Virus record (IMG/VR): IMGVR_UViG_3300045988_140928
Location: 64,001 to 128,000 of that record
Source: a virus
Length of the DNA: 64,000 bases
Reading direction: 5' to 3' (one strand)
Positions 21,660-60,743 of the stretch are shown here, in pieces; the first letter of the stretch is position 1; each line of letters opens with the position of its first letter. Below the pieces are notes generated by a model. It was not told the origin of the DNA. It saw nothing but the letters and a program-made list of their open reading frames with translations, and did not search any database. The translations under genes were made by a program, and so were the position numbers.

Positions 21660-21840
21660 TAGCAATTGCAGGAGTCGAACCTACCTAGATAGAAAACAGA
21701 TAAGATAAAGAAATTGAAAGGACTTAAGCCGTTTTATGAATATAACTCAGTCTTCTATGTATTACAGCAAAATTATTTTGAAATCCAATTTTATTGGAAG
21801 GAGGTGTTTATATAAAATCTATCTATACCACTAAATTGCT
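21660..21840 (-). ncRNA. 181-nt tRNA-capped RNA (acceptor stem + T-arm enclosing a large insert)
   Basis: 5' AGCAATT pairs perfectly with 3' AATTGCT. T-arm is GTAGG-TTCGACT-CCTGC and the D-loop-like segment is TAGTGGTA. An 8-bp helix TAGATAGA/TCTATCTA closes an insert of about 115 nt that contains CACCUCCUU. It starts 4 nt after tRNA-Arg. Confidence 0.6.
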
Positions 21841-21844
21841 ACAA

Positions 21845-21917
21845 TGTCCCGACCGAGACTCGGACTCGGATTTTCGGATTAGAAATCCGATGTTTTATCC
21901 AGTTAGACTATCGAGAC
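21845..21917 (-). tRNA. tRNA-Arg (anticodon UCU)
   Basis: Hand-folded. Acceptor GTCTCGA/TCGGGAC, anticodon arm TCGGA-TTTCTAA-TCCGA, T-arm CCGAG-TCCGAGT-CTCGG. One D-stem mismatch and no encoded CCA. Confidence 0.75.
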
Positions 21918-22057
21918 AAGTGTGCTATTAACACACATGGTTACACTTATACGTCCGAACACAAATTACAAACCAAAATAAGAAACCACTATTCAACATC
22001 AAATGTCATTAAGAAGGAAGGACCTAGTTACCATCACCCAAAGATAGCTAAGCCCAA

Positions 22058-22130
22058 TTGCGGAGACAGGACTTGAACCTGTGACCTCCAGATAATGAGT
22101 CTGGCGAGCTACCAACTGCTCCACCCCACG
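22058..22130 (-). tRNA. initiator-type tRNA-Met (CAU) with non-canonical anticodon stem
   Basis: CGTGGGGTGGAGCAGTTGGTAGCTCGCCAGACTCATTATCTGGAGGTCACAGGTTCAAGTCCTGTCTCCGCAA. It has the C1xA72 mismatch, A11:U24 and a CAU anticodon. The anticodon stem is CCAGA/TCTGG rather than 3xG:C. Confidence 0.8.
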
Positions 22131-22188
22131 ATAAGAAAGGATTGGTCATTTGACTAACATTTAATTAATGTATTTAACCAACAATTTT

Positions 22189-22217
22189 ATAATACACCTG
22201 TCTTATCATAAAAGCAA
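22189..22217 (-). promoter_or_regulatory. sigma-A-type promoter of the tRNA operon
   Basis: Minus strand reads TTGCTT-17 nt-TATTAT, about 55 nt upstream of the first tRNA. Confidence 0.55.
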
Positions 22218-23115: not shown

Positions 23116-23718
23116 TTAATACCAACCATGTGATTGCCAGAATGATTGAGCATTAGCCCATGACCCATAGCGATTAGTAACGTATTGTTGAGCTACTCGT
23201 TCTTGGTTAGCTTCTGAATAGTCACCATTTAAGTAAGAAGCGTCTAATTGGTAACGTCCAATATAACGTCCATTAGTAGCTCCATAACTACCGCCAGACT
23301 CACGGTTAGCAATCCATTCTTTAGCTGATTGTTCTGAACCAGAAACAACTGGTGTAGCTGATTGACTTTGAGCTGGAGTAGTAGGTTGTTGTACAGGAGC
23401 TTGTGACTGTACTGGTTGAGTAGTTTGTACAGGTTGAGTATTAACAGTAGCTTGACTAGCTGGTTGAGCTTGGTTAGCTACTGGAGTTTGTACATTATTA
23501 GTAGTTGGTTGTTGCGCTTCTGGGGTAAGCACTAAAATATCACCAACGAAGATCTTGTTAGCATCGCTAAGTTGACTAGCAGATGCAATTGTTGATATAT
23601 CAGTTCCGTACTTGTTAGCGATGCTAGAAACAGTATCTCCAGCTTCTACACGTACATGAGTATCATCAATCTTAGTGTCAGCATTAGCTGTAGTAGCACC
23701 AAGTAAAGCACCAGCCAT
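23116..23718 (-). CDS. secreted LysM + APF-like (aggregation-promoting-factor C-terminal domain) protein; true start uncertain
   Basis: LysM (VEAGDTVSSIANKYGTDISTI..ILVL), a Q/P/T-rich linker, then ..KEWIANRESGGSYGATNGRYIGRYQLDASYLNGDYSEANQERVAQQYVTNRYGSWANAQSFWQSHGWY, typical of Lactobacillus APF/surface proteins. The frame continues upstream (..LLSKKNNIKFALAGAV) without a canonical start. Confidence 0.7.
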   Translation of the reverse strand: MAGALLGATTANADTKIDDTHVRVEAGDTVSSIANKYGTDISTIASASQLSDANKIFVGDILVLTPEAQQPTTNNVQTPVANQAQPASQATVNTQPVQTTQPVQSQAPVQQPTTPAQSQSATPVVSGSEQSAKEWIANRESGGSYGATNGRYIGRYQLDASYLNGDYSEANQERVAQQYVTNRYGSWANAQSFWQSHGWY

Positions 23719-23945
23719 AACAGCACCGGCTAAAGCGAATTTAATATTGTTCTTCTTAGATAATAAAATAAACCATCTATCCTTTCGTTTACATATGAAT
23801 TCTTTGTTTGTTCATATAAAATTCATATTTGATTACATCTTTACTATAGCACGCACCTATTACAGAACAACTACAGCAATGTTACAACAATATTACAGAA
23901 TTAAGGCAAAATAAAAAGACCTGTCAATTAGACAAGCCCTAATTC

Positions 23946-57389: not shown

Positions 57390-57698
57390 TTAATAGTCAT
57401 ATTCTGCACGTTGTAAACCAAGATAAATACAAGTATTATCTTTTGTTTTAGCAAAACTCTTGTATAAATAATTGTCTTGGTTATCCATTGTATAGGCTTC
57501 GCCCATGCAAAAGGATTGAATAAAGCTAGTATTTAATTTATTTTCTAGCTTCTTTTCTACTTCTTCCTTTAATGGTAAAGGTGGTAGAACTTCATACATT
57601 TGAGAATAGATTTCATACTCAACTTGTTGGAATTGCTTTGGTTTTAATTCTCCAGTGGCTTCGTTGTCCCAGTCTTTAACAGTGTATACATTAGTCAT
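57390..57698 (-). CDS. hypothetical early protein
   Basis: 102 aa; AAGGAAG SD; starts MTN. Confidence 0.6.
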   Translation of the reverse strand: MTNVYTVKDWDNEATGELKPKQFQQVEYEIYSQMYEVLPPLPLKEEVEKKLENKLNTSFIQSFCMGEAYTMDNQDNYLYKSFAKTKDNTCIYLGLQRAEYDY

Positions 57699-57717
57699 AA
57701 TTATTACTTCCTTTTTC

Positions 57718-58011
57718 TTAATCTTGTGCTTCTAGTTTATTAACCCGCTCAGCTAACTTTTTAGCTAACTCTTGATTAGGACCATTGAAAATAACTTCTT
57801 CTTGTTCCCTTGGGGTTAATAGTTGCCAACCGCCTTTTTGATAAGGCTTGTGGGTTACAATCATATTATAAGGGGTAAGGTTAGCGATGTCGTCAATTTT
57901 CCTCCACTCAAAAAATGCTTTTACCTTAAGATAAGATGAAACCATTCCAGCTAATTTATGGTATTTATCACAAACGAACAAATCCATTGTTTCTTTTTCT
58001 GTTAACGTCAT
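57718..58011 (-). CDS. hypothetical early protein
   Basis: 97 aa; first gene behind cassette A copy 1. Confidence 0.6.
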   Translation of the reverse strand: MTLTEKETMDLFVCDKYHKLAGMVSSYLKVKAFFEWRKIDDIANLTPYNMIVTHKPYQKGGWQLLTPREQEEVIFNGPNQELAKKLAERVNKLEAQD

Positions 58012-58176
58012 AATTATTACTTCCTTTTCTTTATTCCTTATTACATTATTATAATAACATTGATTGTTAAGGTTGTCAACCCTTATTTCTAAATAATTAA
58101 GGATTTAAGCTCAATCCTTGAAATAACCTTTGCTTCATTACATTATTATAATAACATTGAATGTTATTATAGTCAA
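58007..58176 (-). repeat. early cassette A, copy 1: P1 (58148-58176) - hairpin - P2 (58051-58079) - SD - ATG
   Basis: 170 bp identical to 59623-59792 as far as I can read. Both promoters are TTGAC(A/T)-17 nt-TATTAT. Hairpin AAGGATT-gagctta-AATCCTT lies between them. Confidence 0.85.
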
Positions 58177-58189
58177 CGGATATTACATA

Positions 58190-58579
58190 TTATTTTGCAG
58201 GAATTTGAAAATCTTTATCTTTTAGGAACTCCAAAGAGTCATACAGATTATAAGAGTGTCCGTATTCCCGTTGGTTAGTTAGTAAATCAATAAATACATT
58301 ATCAATAAAGATATAATTATCAAAGATTGTTAGCATTCTCTTATAACGGGGTTGCCAAACTAGTAGACAACTGGAAAAGTTAGGTGCATAAATCTTAATA
58401 GTGTCAATCTTAATCACTTGTTTTAATTCATAGTCAAGCCCCTTGAAAGTAATTAAGTTAGTTTCTGAATCTGGCTTTGTGTAGTCGTCCATTTTAATCA
58501 TGTATGAACGGTAAAAGCTATACATAGATTTAGGCTTGTTTTGTGGCTTGATTTTGAAAAAGTCTTTTAATGTTAGCAT
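58190..58579 (-). CDS. hypothetical early protein
   Basis: Start at the second ATG, which has better spacing to the AAGGGGG SD. Confidence 0.6.
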   Translation of the reverse strand: MLTLKDFFKIKPQNKPKSMYSFYRSYMIKMDDYTKPDSETNLITFKGLDYELKQVIKIDTIKIYAPNFSSCLLVWQPRYKRMLTIFDNYIFIDNVFIDLLTNQREYGHSYNLYDSLEFLKDKDFQIPAK

Positions 58580-58592
58580 AGTCATACCCCCT

Positions 58593-58790
58593 TTATCTTC
58601 TCATCCAAAGTGGTGTCATAATCGTTATAAAAATAATAATCCACCAGTTAGCGGGGTCAAGCATAGACAAAACAACAATAGGAACGGCAAGAATTAACAA
58701 ACAGATAATAATTAGCTTCTTAGCCTTTTTATAGGCTTCGGGTATTTGTTGGTCGTGTACGTATTTACGGCGGTTGTCCCTCTCATTCAT
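58593..58790 (-). CDS. small membrane protein
   Basis: 65 aa, two hydrophobic segments. Confidence 0.55.
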   Translation of the reverse strand: MNERDNRRKYVHDQQIPEAYKKAKKLIIICLLILAVPIVVLSMLDPANWWIIIFITIMTPLWMRR

Positions 58791-58806
58791 AATTACACCT
58801 TCTTAA

Positions 58807-59097
58807 TTATCTACTTTCAATTAATGATTCTACTGTGTTAAGGCTGTCAGTAATTACTTGACTAACCTTTTTTAATTCTTCTTCAGTAGGGTTATTACGA
58901 TTGATTAGCAACTTGTGTGCCCCGTTGTTGTTAGTCGTATAAATTAATACATCGTTTTGGTCGGCGCTGTCATAATCAAAAAGCCAGTGACCTTCATAAT
59001 AAACATTTAACAAATCAAGGTCGATTGTAATATCATCGCCTTCAAGTGCAAAGTCTACAAGTTCCATGATTTTATTAGTTAGCTCTACATTAGTCAT
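58807..59097 (-). CDS. hypothetical acidic early protein
   Basis: 96 aa; behind cassette B copy 1. Confidence 0.6.
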   Translation of the reverse strand: MTNVELTNKIMELVDFALEGDDITIDLDLLNVYYEGHWLFDYDSADQNDVLIYTTNNNGAHKLLINRNNPTEEELKKVSQVITDSLNTVESLIESR

Positions 59098-59222
59098 TTT
59101 ATTTACTTCCTTTTCTTAATTAATAAAGTCTAAACAATTAAGAGTTTAAGCTTAACTCTTGAAATAATCCTTGTTCCTTATTACATTATTATAATAACAT
59201 TGAATTGTTATTAAGTCAATAG
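59090..59222 (-). repeat. early cassette B, copy 1: promoter (59191-59219) - leader hairpin - SD - ATG
   Basis: 133 bp matching 60198-60330. TTGACT-17 nt-TATTAT. Leader hairpin AAGAGTT-aagctta-AACTCTT. Confidence 0.85.
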
Positions 59223-59228
59223 ATAAGG

Positions 59229-59627
59229 TTAAAAATTAGCTACTGCATTAACTAAACTAGACAATAATTCTTCTCCAGTTTTTGCGATTGTAATGGTTTT
59301 GTCCTCTACTTCTACAACTCTCCACCATTCATCTTTAGCTAATGAATCTACATTAACTTCATAGATTCCGAGGGCGTTTGCTTGCACTTTATCATAGTTA
59401 ACTTTTAGTTCCCATTTTTGGGTATATTGTGAAATATAATCAAGCGCAATCTTTGAACCAACCTTGACACTTGTAACAATATCCAAGGCCTTATCATATT
59501 CAGCTTCAGAAGCAAGGTCAAAGGCTACTGCTAACCAGTCTAGTTGCTTCAATGCTTTTACATTGTCTTTGTATAATTCTTTTTTAAGTTCCAAGTTTTG
59601 GTTAAATGCTTTTGTAGTGTTAGTCAT
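59229..59627 (-). CDS. hypothetical early protein
   Basis: 132 aa; behind cassette A copy 2. Confidence 0.6.
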   Translation of the reverse strand: MTNTTKAFNQNLELKKELYKDNVKALKQLDWLAVAFDLASEAEYDKALDIVTSVKVGSKIALDYISQYTQKWELKVNYDKVQANALGIYEVNVDSLAKDEWWRVVEVEDKTITIAKTGEELLSSLVNAVANF

Positions 59628-59792
59628 AATTATTACTTCCTTTTCTTTATTCCTTATTACATTATTATAATAACATTGATTGTTAAGGTTGTCAACCCTT
59701 ATTTCTAAATAATTAAGGATTTAAGCTCAATCCTTGAAATAACCTTTGCTTCATTACATTATTATAATAACATTGAATGTTATTATAGTCAA
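59623..59792 (-). repeat. early cassette A, copy 2: P1 (59764-59792) - hairpin - P2 (59667-59695) - SD - ATG
   Basis: See copy 1. Confidence 0.85.
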
Positions 59793-59809
59793 TAGATATT
59801 TATAAAAAA

Positions 59810-60205
59810 TTAACTTAAAATGTTAGTGACGTAATTATCCCTTAAAGTTAGGATCTTATTGCGTTGATACAAATTGATCCCATTGACACCGATATAATCA
59901 TGTAAGATTACAGAATCAGCGTCTTCTAAATAGATGTACTTCTCACTTGCGTTATTCCAGTTATATAACCATAAAATAATAGGCGTTTCATCATTGTCAT
60001 GGTTGTTGTACCAGTCTTCGAGTTTAGTCCAGCACTCATGAAGTCCAGTTTCATCTTTTTCCATGAATTCATCGAAATCATCATCATAGATGTCCTCAAC
60101 TGTAGCATGCGCCCAGCACTCCAGACCATCAGCACTTAAGGCCTCAACTTGTGAGCTTTTTAATTCCATTTGATTAATAGCGTTCATAATTCCATTATTA
60201 GTCAT
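59810..60205 (-). CDS. hypothetical acidic early protein
   Basis: 131 aa; behind cassette B copy 2. Confidence 0.6.
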   Translation of the reverse strand: MTNNGIMNAINQMELKSSQVEALSADGLECWAHATVEDIYDDDFDEFMEKDETGLHECWTKLEDWYNNHDNDETPIILWLYNWNNASEKYIYLEDADSVILHDYIGVNGINLYQRNKILTLRDNYVTNILS

Positions 60206-60330
60206 TTTATTTACTTCCTTTTCTTAATTAATAAAGTCTAAACAATTAAGAGTTTAAGCTTAACTCTTGAAATAATCCTTGTTCCTTATTACATTATTAT
60301 AATAACATTGAATTGTTATTAAGTCAATAG
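60198..60330 (-). repeat. early cassette B, copy 2 (promoter 60299-60327)
   Basis: See copy 1. Confidence 0.85.
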
Positions 60331-60335
60331 GTTAA

Positions 60336-60704
60336 TTAAACATTTTTGACCCAAGTTAGATCAGAATCCCAGTAACTTAATAGTACTTTGGCAGTTTCAA
60401 TCGCTTTATTATGAATGTTGATAAACCATAGATATTGACCACTAGGCAATTCAGAATATGCAAAATCACCCCTCAAATAGTTACCATGATTTTTTGATAC
60501 TTCTTTAATCATTTCATTGGCTAAACTAACTTTATTCACTGTTTCATCTTCTGCAAGTGTAACAAAATCATTGAAGAACGTATCTTCTCGGTCGGATTCG
60601 TCAATGTGTGATAGTACTACTTTACAAGCGTTTTTCATTGCTGAAACGTAAGTATTAACTGCTAACTTTTGGTCCTTGCTAAATTCAACATATTTGATAA
60701 TCAT
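60336..60704 (-). CDS. hypothetical early protein
   Basis: 122 aa. Confidence 0.6.
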   Translation of the reverse strand: MIIKYVEFSKDQKLAVNTYVSAMKNACKVVLSHIDESDREDTFFNDFVTLAEDETVNKVSLANEMIKEVSKNHGNYLRGDFAYSELPSGQYLWFINIHNKAIETAKVLLSYWDSDLTWVKNV

Positions 60705-60743
60705 AATTATTACTTCCTTTTCTTTATTCCTTATTACATTATT

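Follow-up and report, generated by a model that had tools for sequence, protein, structure and literature searches.

A phage-encoded initiator-type tRNA with a conserved, remodelled anticodon arm that recurs in unrelated phages

How much of its canonical anticodon arm does an initiator tRNA need in a natural setting? The three consecutive G:C pairs of the stem (29:41, 30:40 and 31:39; 3GC) and A37 are among the most conserved features in translation, and their relaxation is known nearly entirely from engineered Escherichia coli mutants. The question is raised by a tRNA-Met gene in a stretch of phage DNA, positions 64,001 to 128,000 of IMG/VR record IMGVR_UViG_3300045988_140928. We call the whole 64-kb stretch the window; it is part of a phage genome of about 130 to 145 kb. 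The gene has the marks of a bacterial initiator tRNA and an anticodon arm that departs from the initiator pattern in both stem and loop. Here, we ask what kind of tRNA it encodes, whether its arm is decayed, drifting or selected, and what such an arm might do.

Two tRNA genes, tRNA-Met(cat) at 22057-22131 and tRNA-Arg(tct) at 21844-21918, are called by ARAGORN in the window, each on the minus strand. The Rfam tRNA model matches the first at full length (22058-22130, 56.3 bits), and the minimum-free-energy fold of the RNA, CGUGGGGUGGAGCAGUUGGUAGCUCGCCAGACUCAUUAUCUGGAGGUCACAGGUUCAAGUCCUGUCUCCGCAA, is a cloverleaf. Its acceptor stem combines a C1xA72 mismatch with G2:C71, U3:G70, G4:C69, G5:C68 and an A at position 73, and the D stem (GAGC/GCUC) provides A11:U24 and G12:C23. 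In a survey of 457 bacterial tRNA-fMet genes, A11:U24 and G12:C23 were complete discriminators against elongator tRNA-Met and tRNA-Ile(CAU), and C1/A72, G2/C71 and C3/G70 were almost invariant (PMC1635315). The phage tRNA has the CAU anticodon, the 1:72 mismatch with G2:C71 and A73, and both D-stem discriminators; at 3:70 it has a U:G wobble in place of C:G, so that G70 is retained. ARAGORN, Rfam and direct reading thus bear out the initiator hallmarks (C1xA72, A11:U24, CAU) named in an earlier, sequence-only reading of this DNA. In E. coli, the phage tRNA matches only the metZWV initiator genes (annotated, between mltA and amiC), and the differences concentrate in the anticodon arm. The acceptor and D arm had been described as almost identical to those of E. 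coli tRNA-fMet; the acceptor strands differ by one base (CGUGGGG in the phage, CGCGGGG in metZWV) and the D stem is the same, but the D loop is one nucleotide shorter.

An elongator tRNA-Met, or a tRNA-Ile2 that reads AUA after lysidine modification of C34, would share the CAU anticodon. Either could form a rare-codon supplement together with the adjacent tRNA-Arg(UCU), a classic AGA supplement, in a window where 13% of Ile codons are AUA and 31% of Arg codons are AGA. tRNA-Ile2 is marked by a paired 1:72, frequently by C4:G69 and C5:G68, by G3 or A3 or else C70 or U70, by an A37 modified to N6-threonylcarbamoyladenosine (t6A), and by pyrimidine 11 with purine 24 (PMC1635315). At these positions the phage tRNA has C1xA72, G4:C69 and G5:C68, G70, U37 (which excludes t6A37) and A11:U24. 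An elongator tRNA-Met would have a Watson-Crick 1:72 pair, pyrimidine 11 with purine 24, and a purine at 37, where the phage tRNA has C1xA72, A11:U24 and U37. In addition, the C33 found in most of its relatives is otherwise known from initiators only (PMC8887486), and the 1:72 mismatch is maintained across the wider phage set described below (its A37 members being those among the matches listed). Because initiator discriminators, mismatch, G70 and the G4:C69 and G5:C68 pairs occur together, the gene is, on sequence grounds, of the tRNA-fMet type, and an elongator or Ile2 identity is very unlikely.

The anticodon arm follows a different pattern. Its stem (CCAGA/UCUGG) pairs C27:G43, C28:G42, A29:U41, G30:C40 and A31:U39, and its loop is CUCAUUA (C32, U33, C34, A35, U36, U37, A38), with the anticodon at 22097-22095, U37 at 22094 and U39 at 22092. 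The sequence-only reading had correctly given G30:C40 as the only G:C pair left of the three, and U as the base at position 37; the minus strand is our addition. Positions 29:41, 30:40 and 31:39 thus read A:U, G:C, A:U rather than three G:C pairs. Cellular initiators conserve the weaker pattern R29 G30 G31 / Y39 C40 Y41, in which R is a purine and Y a pyrimidine (PMC1635315); A31:U39 departs from this pattern as well. The loop differs from the canonical CUCAUAA (U33, A37) by its U37.

The stem had been called degenerate, a term that does not hold if it is taken to mean decay. Six syntenic contigs from two metagenomes keep the arrangement of open reading frame (ORF), tRNA-Met and tRNA-Arg. Among the seven phages (the window and these six relatives), the tRNA-Met varies at only three of 73 positions: 6 (G or A, both of which pair with U67), 33 (U or C) and 47 (U or C). 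All seven share the stem CCAGA/UCUGG and U37, and within the arm only position 33 varies, the loop being CUCAUUA in the window and in L215 and CCCAUUA in the other five relatives (L214 and L216-L219). Identity to the window is 96-99% for the tRNA-Met and 93-95% for the 100-nt leader upstream of it, compared with about 83% at the nucleotide level for the adjacent ORF and 80% for the spacer between the two tRNA genes. This contrast argues for purifying selection rather than decay. The tRNA-Arg ranges from 75 to 100% identity and shows many compensatory changes from relative to relative. A pseudogene in decay, or a tRNA-like sequence arisen by chance, would go with a U37 that is highly unusual in any tRNA and with the tRNA remnants elsewhere in the window (31093-31150, 31519-31577 and about 21668-21684). 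It is extremely unlikely for a gene that scores 56 bits as a full-length tRNA, folds into a perfect cloverleaf, is conserved at 96-99% behind a conserved leader and keeps its pairing at the sole stem change. These comparisons indicate that the tRNA-Met is under strong purifying selection as a working RNA.

Comparison with canonical initiators places the changes in the arm. A contig from a viral collection (L194) encodes an initiator with the same D and T arms and the canonical arm UCGGG/CUCAUAA/CCCGA. Ten differences separate it from the phage tRNA, and seven of these (27, 29, 31, 37, 39, 41 and 43) fall within the 17-nt anticodon arm (binomial P = 0.002). The same canonical arm is carried by an Enterococcus-type tRNA operon, in a record that bears a phage label and an unverified flag, so the nearest proxy for the host initiator, although not the host's own, does not have the phage stem. 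A GenBank record labelled "Enterococcus phage Efs 1-1-1" (OR846591.1, 1-1320; UNVERIFIED_ORG; L002) opens with 14 tRNA genes in 1.3 kb, a canonical initiator included, and resembles a tRNA operon of a host more than phage DNA. The crystal structure of free E. coli tRNA-fMet shows A37 in a base triple on G29:C41, supported by a contact to C39, with C32-A38 stacked on G31:C39 (PMC2528185). All three of these conformation-building elements are replaced in the phage tRNA (A37 by U, G29:C41 by A:U and G31:C39 by A:U). They form one structural set, which fits the coupling of U37 with A31:U39 reported below. By these comparisons the remodelling of the arm is focused and selected.

The variant arm extends beyond the clade. 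Viral contigs were scanned for the pattern GCUCG-N5-CUCAUUA-N5-AGGUC, with the same pattern containing CUCAUAA as the A37 control; here and below, A37 tRNAs, and sets that include them, are those among the matches listed. U37 initiator-like tRNAs were found on 71 viral contigs; the distinct tRNAs among them number about 40 and have several unrelated backbones. A31:U39 is present in 17 of 43 unique U37 tRNAs versus 6 of 197 unique A37 tRNAs (Fisher P = 5e-10). In the pooled set, G30:C40 is kept in 236 of 242 unique tRNAs, whereas 29:41 is G:C in only about 40%, in the U37 and A37 classes alike. The initiator marks are largely retained in this set: 1:72 is mismatched in about 77%, most of the others having U1:A72; G2:C71 and C3:G70 each exceed 90%; A11 is present in 100%; and 17 other tRNAs share U3:G70. 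C33 is also widespread, with at least 114 tRNA-like matches (L268-L384), 106 of them with the loop CCCAUAA. By contrast, a scan of 185,579 bacterial and archaeal species genomes for the U37 pattern, allowing U or C at 33, returned 48 matches, of which about 28 were tRNA-like, mostly on contigs of metagenome-assembled genomes (MAGs); several were identical to tRNAs on viral contigs, and no Lactobacillales were among the matches. On a 3.3-kb Saccharibacteria MAG contig assigned to Candidatus Nanosyncoccus (L246, 1238-1264), an initiator-like tRNA combines U37 with a ua/GC/GC stem and has its CCA encoded; it may be cellular or viral. Thus, as judged from these scans, the variant arm recurs in unrelated phages and is rare in cells.

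An alternative is neutral drift, in which only G30:C40 and the anticodon would be needed, the flanking G:C pairs would turn to A:U in an AT-rich phage (33% G+C), and positions 33 and 37 would drift as well. The tRNA would then be a plain extra copy of the initiator that boosts initiation capacity late in infection. The low frequency of G:C at 29:41 beside a nearly invariant G30:C40, the abundance of C33, and mutagenesis in which the flanking pairs were dispensable for viability (PMC5389676) are all in keeping with this explanation. It does not readily account for the change of A37 to U, which is neutral with respect to AT content yet tightly tied to A31:U39, for an arm frozen among phages whose coding DNA has diverged by 17%, or for a set of changes concentrated in the arm when the acceptor, D and T stems, rich in G+C, have remained canonical. 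Moreover, the canonical arm persists in cellular genomes that are about as AT-rich, the Enterococcus-type operon being an example. We therefore regard drift as possible but unlikely.

Whether a tRNA with this arm can initiate is best judged from E. coli, where mutagenesis identified the middle pair, G30:C40, as the essential one and as sufficient for initiation (PMC5389676). In that work (stems written in the order 29:41, 30:40, 31:39), cells could grow on au/GC/GC (1st-AU), GC/GC/au (3rd-AU), au/GC/gu and even au/gu/au as initiators, though with defects in the cold or in minimal medium, whereas mid-AU, mid-CG, 3AU and ua/cg/au initiators did not sustain growth. The natural variants known previously were au/GC/GC, GC/GC/gu and au/GC/gu (PMC5389676). 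The loop change also has a laboratory counterpart, since A37U in tRNA-fMet is tolerated in E. coli (PMC10018350). Given that G30:C40 suffices and A37U is tolerated, the phage tRNA is most likely a working initiator. The suggestion in the sequence-only reading that loss of two G:C pairs might let the tRNA escape start-codon proofreading finds no direct support, G30:C40 being the pair that matters in E. coli. By analogy with the 1st-AU, 3rd-AU, au/GC/gu and au/gu/au initiators that sustain growth, the stem should satisfy the P-site check, not circumvent it.

We favor, with a probability of about 0.5, the reading that this is a functional phage-encoded initiator that is competent on the ribosome and unrecognised by a factor that reads the canonical initiator arm. 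The tRNA-Met would be transcribed from its own leader together with the neighbouring tRNA-Arg, trimmed and given its CCA by host enzymes, charged by the host methionyl-tRNA synthetase through the CAU anticodon and A73, and formylated by the host formyltransferase through C1xA72, G2:C71 and A11:U24. It could then enter the ribosomal P site directly, with the retained G30:C40 giving the essential contact. In this way the phage would supply an initiator that is active on the ribosome yet invisible to the factor. The best precedent for such a factor would be the VapC-type nucleases: enteric VapC toxins cut tRNA-fMet between A38 and C39 (PMC4105405), and loop mutations have been put forward as the means by which phage tRNAs escape anticodon nucleases (PMC10264068; see also PMC12482277). 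Positions 37 and 39, which flank the A38/C39 bond, both differ in the phage tRNA from the E. coli and Enterococcus-type initiators (proxies for the host initiator, not the host's own), and changes at both could serve to escape cleavage. The remodelling would also preclude any modification of base 37. The reason for the remodelling of the arm is one that we infer from these parallels.

Several points weigh against this reading. To our knowledge, no initiator-directed nuclease is known in lactobacilli, the likely hosts (see below), and Pfam and PHROGs identified no nuclease, RNA ligase or kinase, formyltransferase or initiation-factor gene in the 64-kb window. Where VapC acts, phages are said mostly to avoid encoding tRNA-fMet and not to mutate it (eLife study, PMC10264068). 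The exact au/GC/au stem is absent from the E. coli mutants assayed, and the single 1st-AU and 3rd-AU mutants grow poorly in the cold (PMC5389676), so that initiation by the phage tRNA may be of reduced efficiency. The association of U37 with A31:U39 could stem in part from shared ancestry of the sampled tRNAs, since the Fisher test ignores kinship, and the A37 and C33 counts, being counts among the matches listed, are not population frequencies.

A different role for U37 is suggested by start-site retargeting, in which U37 pairs with the mRNA base at position -1 and favors phage messages with A (or G) there. Weak A-AUC starts would be stabilised by three pairs (A-1:U37, A1:U36 and U2:A35), and the phage would have an initiation preference of its own. 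The A37U change in E. coli tRNA-fMet increases translation from mRNAs that carry, at -1, the complement of base 37 (PMC10018350). The sequence-only reading had noted that several genes in the window seem to start at AUU, AUC or AUA, and had tentatively offered a link to the tRNA. Most of the sites are ATA-ATG or ATT-ATG and thus ordinary ATG starts. A crude count of Shine-Dalgarno (SD) sequences followed by ATH codons (H is A, C or T) was accordingly rejected as evidence of bulk AUH starts, as it is dominated by these sites, with ATG at normal SD spacing. Three genes do have a conserved AUU or AUC at their apparent start (Table 1). In the LysM gene, the signal peptide MLLSKKNN.KFALAGAVMAGALLGATTANA is complete only from the ATT, which has the SD sequence GAAAGGA 10 nt upstream and is conserved in four relatives, where a downstream ATT is GTT. 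In the PgpA-like gene, L217 and L219 have TTA in place of the window's first canonical start (TTG 28007), the six substitutions that separate the sequences from the ATC to codon 28007 are all synonymous, and the N-terminus aligns with the annotated start of PgpA of phage 3-521. In the small membrane-protein gene, five phages share the ATC without change in two distinct upstream contexts, behind a GGGG(A) SD at a distance of 8-10 nt; TTG directly precedes the ATC in one relative, and the first canonical start is reached only 60 codons downstream. The TAATC overlaps at 27980 and 32725 correspond to the more usual TAATG.

At both AUC starts the -1 base is A (TA-ATC), and A is the commonest -1 base in the window (53-59%), as retargeting would have it. 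However, the -1 base of the AUU-start gene is U, A is as common at -3 as at -1, and tests across phage loci that related U37 tRNAs to AUH starts or to A at -1 gave negative or nonsignificant results. Upstream extensions with an SD and an AUH codon numbered 17 candidates versus 62 control triplets at U37 loci and 18 versus 65 at A37 loci, which is no enrichment, at low power. For tRNA position 37 against mRNA position -1, pooled counts were suggestive, but after dereplication the U37 and A37 phage loci did not differ significantly (odds ratio 1.2, P = 0.40, low power). Nor was there a significant difference between the -1 A/T ratio of the window and that of Lactobacillus phage LfeInf, which has no initiator tRNA in the 100 of 106 kb scanned (P = 0.26, low power). 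The stem changes and C33 would be left unexplained. We thus consider retargeting doubtful, and any link of the AUU/AUC-start genes to the tRNA-Met is inferred only. Still somewhat less probable, and speculative, is a combination of the two ideas: that phages have repeatedly evolved a private initiator that keeps CAU, G30:C40 and the formylation signals and rewrites 33, 37 and 31:39, both hiding it from host factors and allowing U37 to read a fourth base, A at -1. If this were true, A-AUC-type starts would become usable, and initiation would be biased to phage messages once the host initiator is depleted.

Table 1. Features of the window discussed in the text (positions are those of the window).
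Feature	Position	Strand	Details
Initiator-type tRNA(CAU) gene	22058..22130	minus	73 nt, no encoded CCA; ARAGORN, Rfam, cloverleaf fold
Anticodon arm (tRNA positions 27-43)	22088..22104	minus	CCAGA CUCAUUA UCUGG; read from sequence
tRNA-Arg(UCU) gene	21845..21917	minus	ARAGORN; Rfam 58.5 bits, full length; 140 nt downstream of tRNA-Met
Promoter-like site	22189..22217	minus	TTGCTT 22217-22212, 17 nt, TATTAT 22194-22189 preceded by TG; hand-identified, in the 100-nt leader
LysM secreted-protein gene	23116..23769	minus	apparent AUU start at 23769; Pfam LysM
PgpA-like gene	27980..28486	plus	apparent AUC start at 27980, or possibly AUA at 27977; TAATC stop/start overlap
Small membrane-protein gene	32725..33186	plus	apparent AUC start at 32725 (MKVFAIILLLVWLISFG...); TAATC overlap

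The setting of the gene is that of a phage. The window encodes collagen-like tail fibres, an endolysin, a helicase, a DNA polymerase and an anti-repressor-like protein, along with a PnuC transporter, a nucleoside deoxyribosyltransferase, a thymidine kinase and the PgpA-like protein. The DNA polymerase shares 54% amino-acid identity with that of Lactobacillus (L. fermentum) phage LfeInf (Herelleviridae), the closest isolate by this protein, and about 40% with polymerases of L. plantarum phages. The sole host-pointing match is a TnpB element with 76% identity to an element on a Limosilactobacillus reuteri plasmid. The polymerase likeness and the TnpB match together suggest that the host is probably a member of the Lactobacillaceae. 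A megablast search of the tRNA region against isolated phages gave matches to the LysM domain only and no close relative, and the tRNA genes that ARAGORN found in LfeInf, in the part scanned, were tRNA-Ser and tRNA-Thr only.

Upstream of the tRNA-Met, the leader contains a weak, putative promoter, picked out by eye; a consensus promoter scan did not call it, and its -35 element matches three of six positions. The tRNA-Arg is probably co-transcribed with the tRNA-Met. Downstream of the tRNA-Arg, a T-arm-like hairpin (GTAGGTTCGACTCCTGC; 21668-21684, minus), present in L023 too, may be the remnant of a third tRNA gene. Elsewhere, four small genes at about 57698-60735 (minus) each lie behind a near-identical leader (AAGGAATAAAGAAAAGGAAGTAATAATTATG) and look like a co-regulated family, probably early.

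Two further tRNA-like elements lie on the plus strand. The sequence-only reading had cited an Asp-like element at 31093 as also having U37. A U does follow GUC there, but the element is a truncated tRNA remnant that ARAGORN does not call, and it was ruled out as a second U37 example. It occupies 31093-31150 and abuts the right end of the TnpB (IS200/IS605-type) element (ORF 29763-30932); homology of the region to related phages begins only at about 31110. The second element (31519-31577, 59 nt; Rfam tRNA 43.9 bits) comprises an acceptor stem, D arm and T arm without an anticodon arm. It is near-identical in two related phages, and a third shares its acceptor and T arms and has about 30 additional nt where an anticodon arm would be expected (matches L215:127-185, L218:642-700 and L219:2451-2536).

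The phage tRNA thus appears to be a natural, selected initiator with only G30:C40 and a pyrimidine at 37, present throughout a clade and echoed on many unrelated phage contigs. Beyond the question of the minimal arm, it raises those of whether position 37 is used for a fourth base pair with mRNA and whether initiator tRNAs are a target in phage-host conflict, as has been shown for elongator tRNAs. Annotation is affected as well, since rules that demand 3GC will label such genes elongator tRNA-Met. Specialists on translation initiation and on the conflict between phages and hosts should find the case of interest. Initiator tRNAs encoded by phages, natural 3GC variants and the engineered A37U change were already known; a search of the open-access literature found no description of U37 or au/GC/au initiators in phages. 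On that literature, what appears new is a naturally fixed au/GC/au arm with U37, often with C33, that recurs in phages and is nearly absent from cells.

Set beside known systems, the phage tRNA shares with bacterial tRNA-fMet (E. coli metZWV and metY, and the Firmicute type) CAU, C1xA72, G2:C71, A73, A11:U24, G12:C23 and G30:C40, as well as C32/A38, the 5-nt variable loop AGGUC and an identical D stem. It differs in A29:U41, A31:U39, U37 for A37 and U3:G70 for C3:G70, in being phage-borne and, in most relatives of the window phage, in C33. The natural 3GC variants of alpha-proteobacteria, chloroplasts and some mycoplasmas (au/GC/GC, GC/GC/gu and au/GC/gu) have likewise lost the first and/or third G:C pair and kept G30:C40 and the purine:pyrimidine order (PMC5389676, PMC1635315), but A31:U39 lies outside their range and a pyrimidine at 37 is not described for them. 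Bacterial initiators have U33 and those of multicellular eukaryotes C33, and the E. coli enzymes fail to form t6A37 in vitro when U33 is changed to C (PMC8887486). The multicellular eukaryotic initiator therefore shares C33 with five of the seven clade phages and many other phage initiator-like tRNAs, whereas eukaryotic initiators have three G:C pairs, A37 (t6A) and an A1:U72 pair, and are not formylated. Engineered E. coli tRNA-fMet A37U (PMC10018350) and chloroplast position-37 mutants carry the same base change as the phage tRNA, which is tolerated in vivo and shifts preference to a complementary -1 base; engineered A37U is a laboratory construct on a canonical 3GC stem, whereas the phage change is natural, fixed and coupled to changes in the stem. 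Finally, the phage tRNAs proposed to evade nucleases (PMC10264068) are phage-borne versions of host tRNA types in which bases at or beside a known cleavage site are substituted. The tRNA-Met may be of the same kind, with VapC-type nucleases as the candidates, but its substitutions extend from the loop into the stem.

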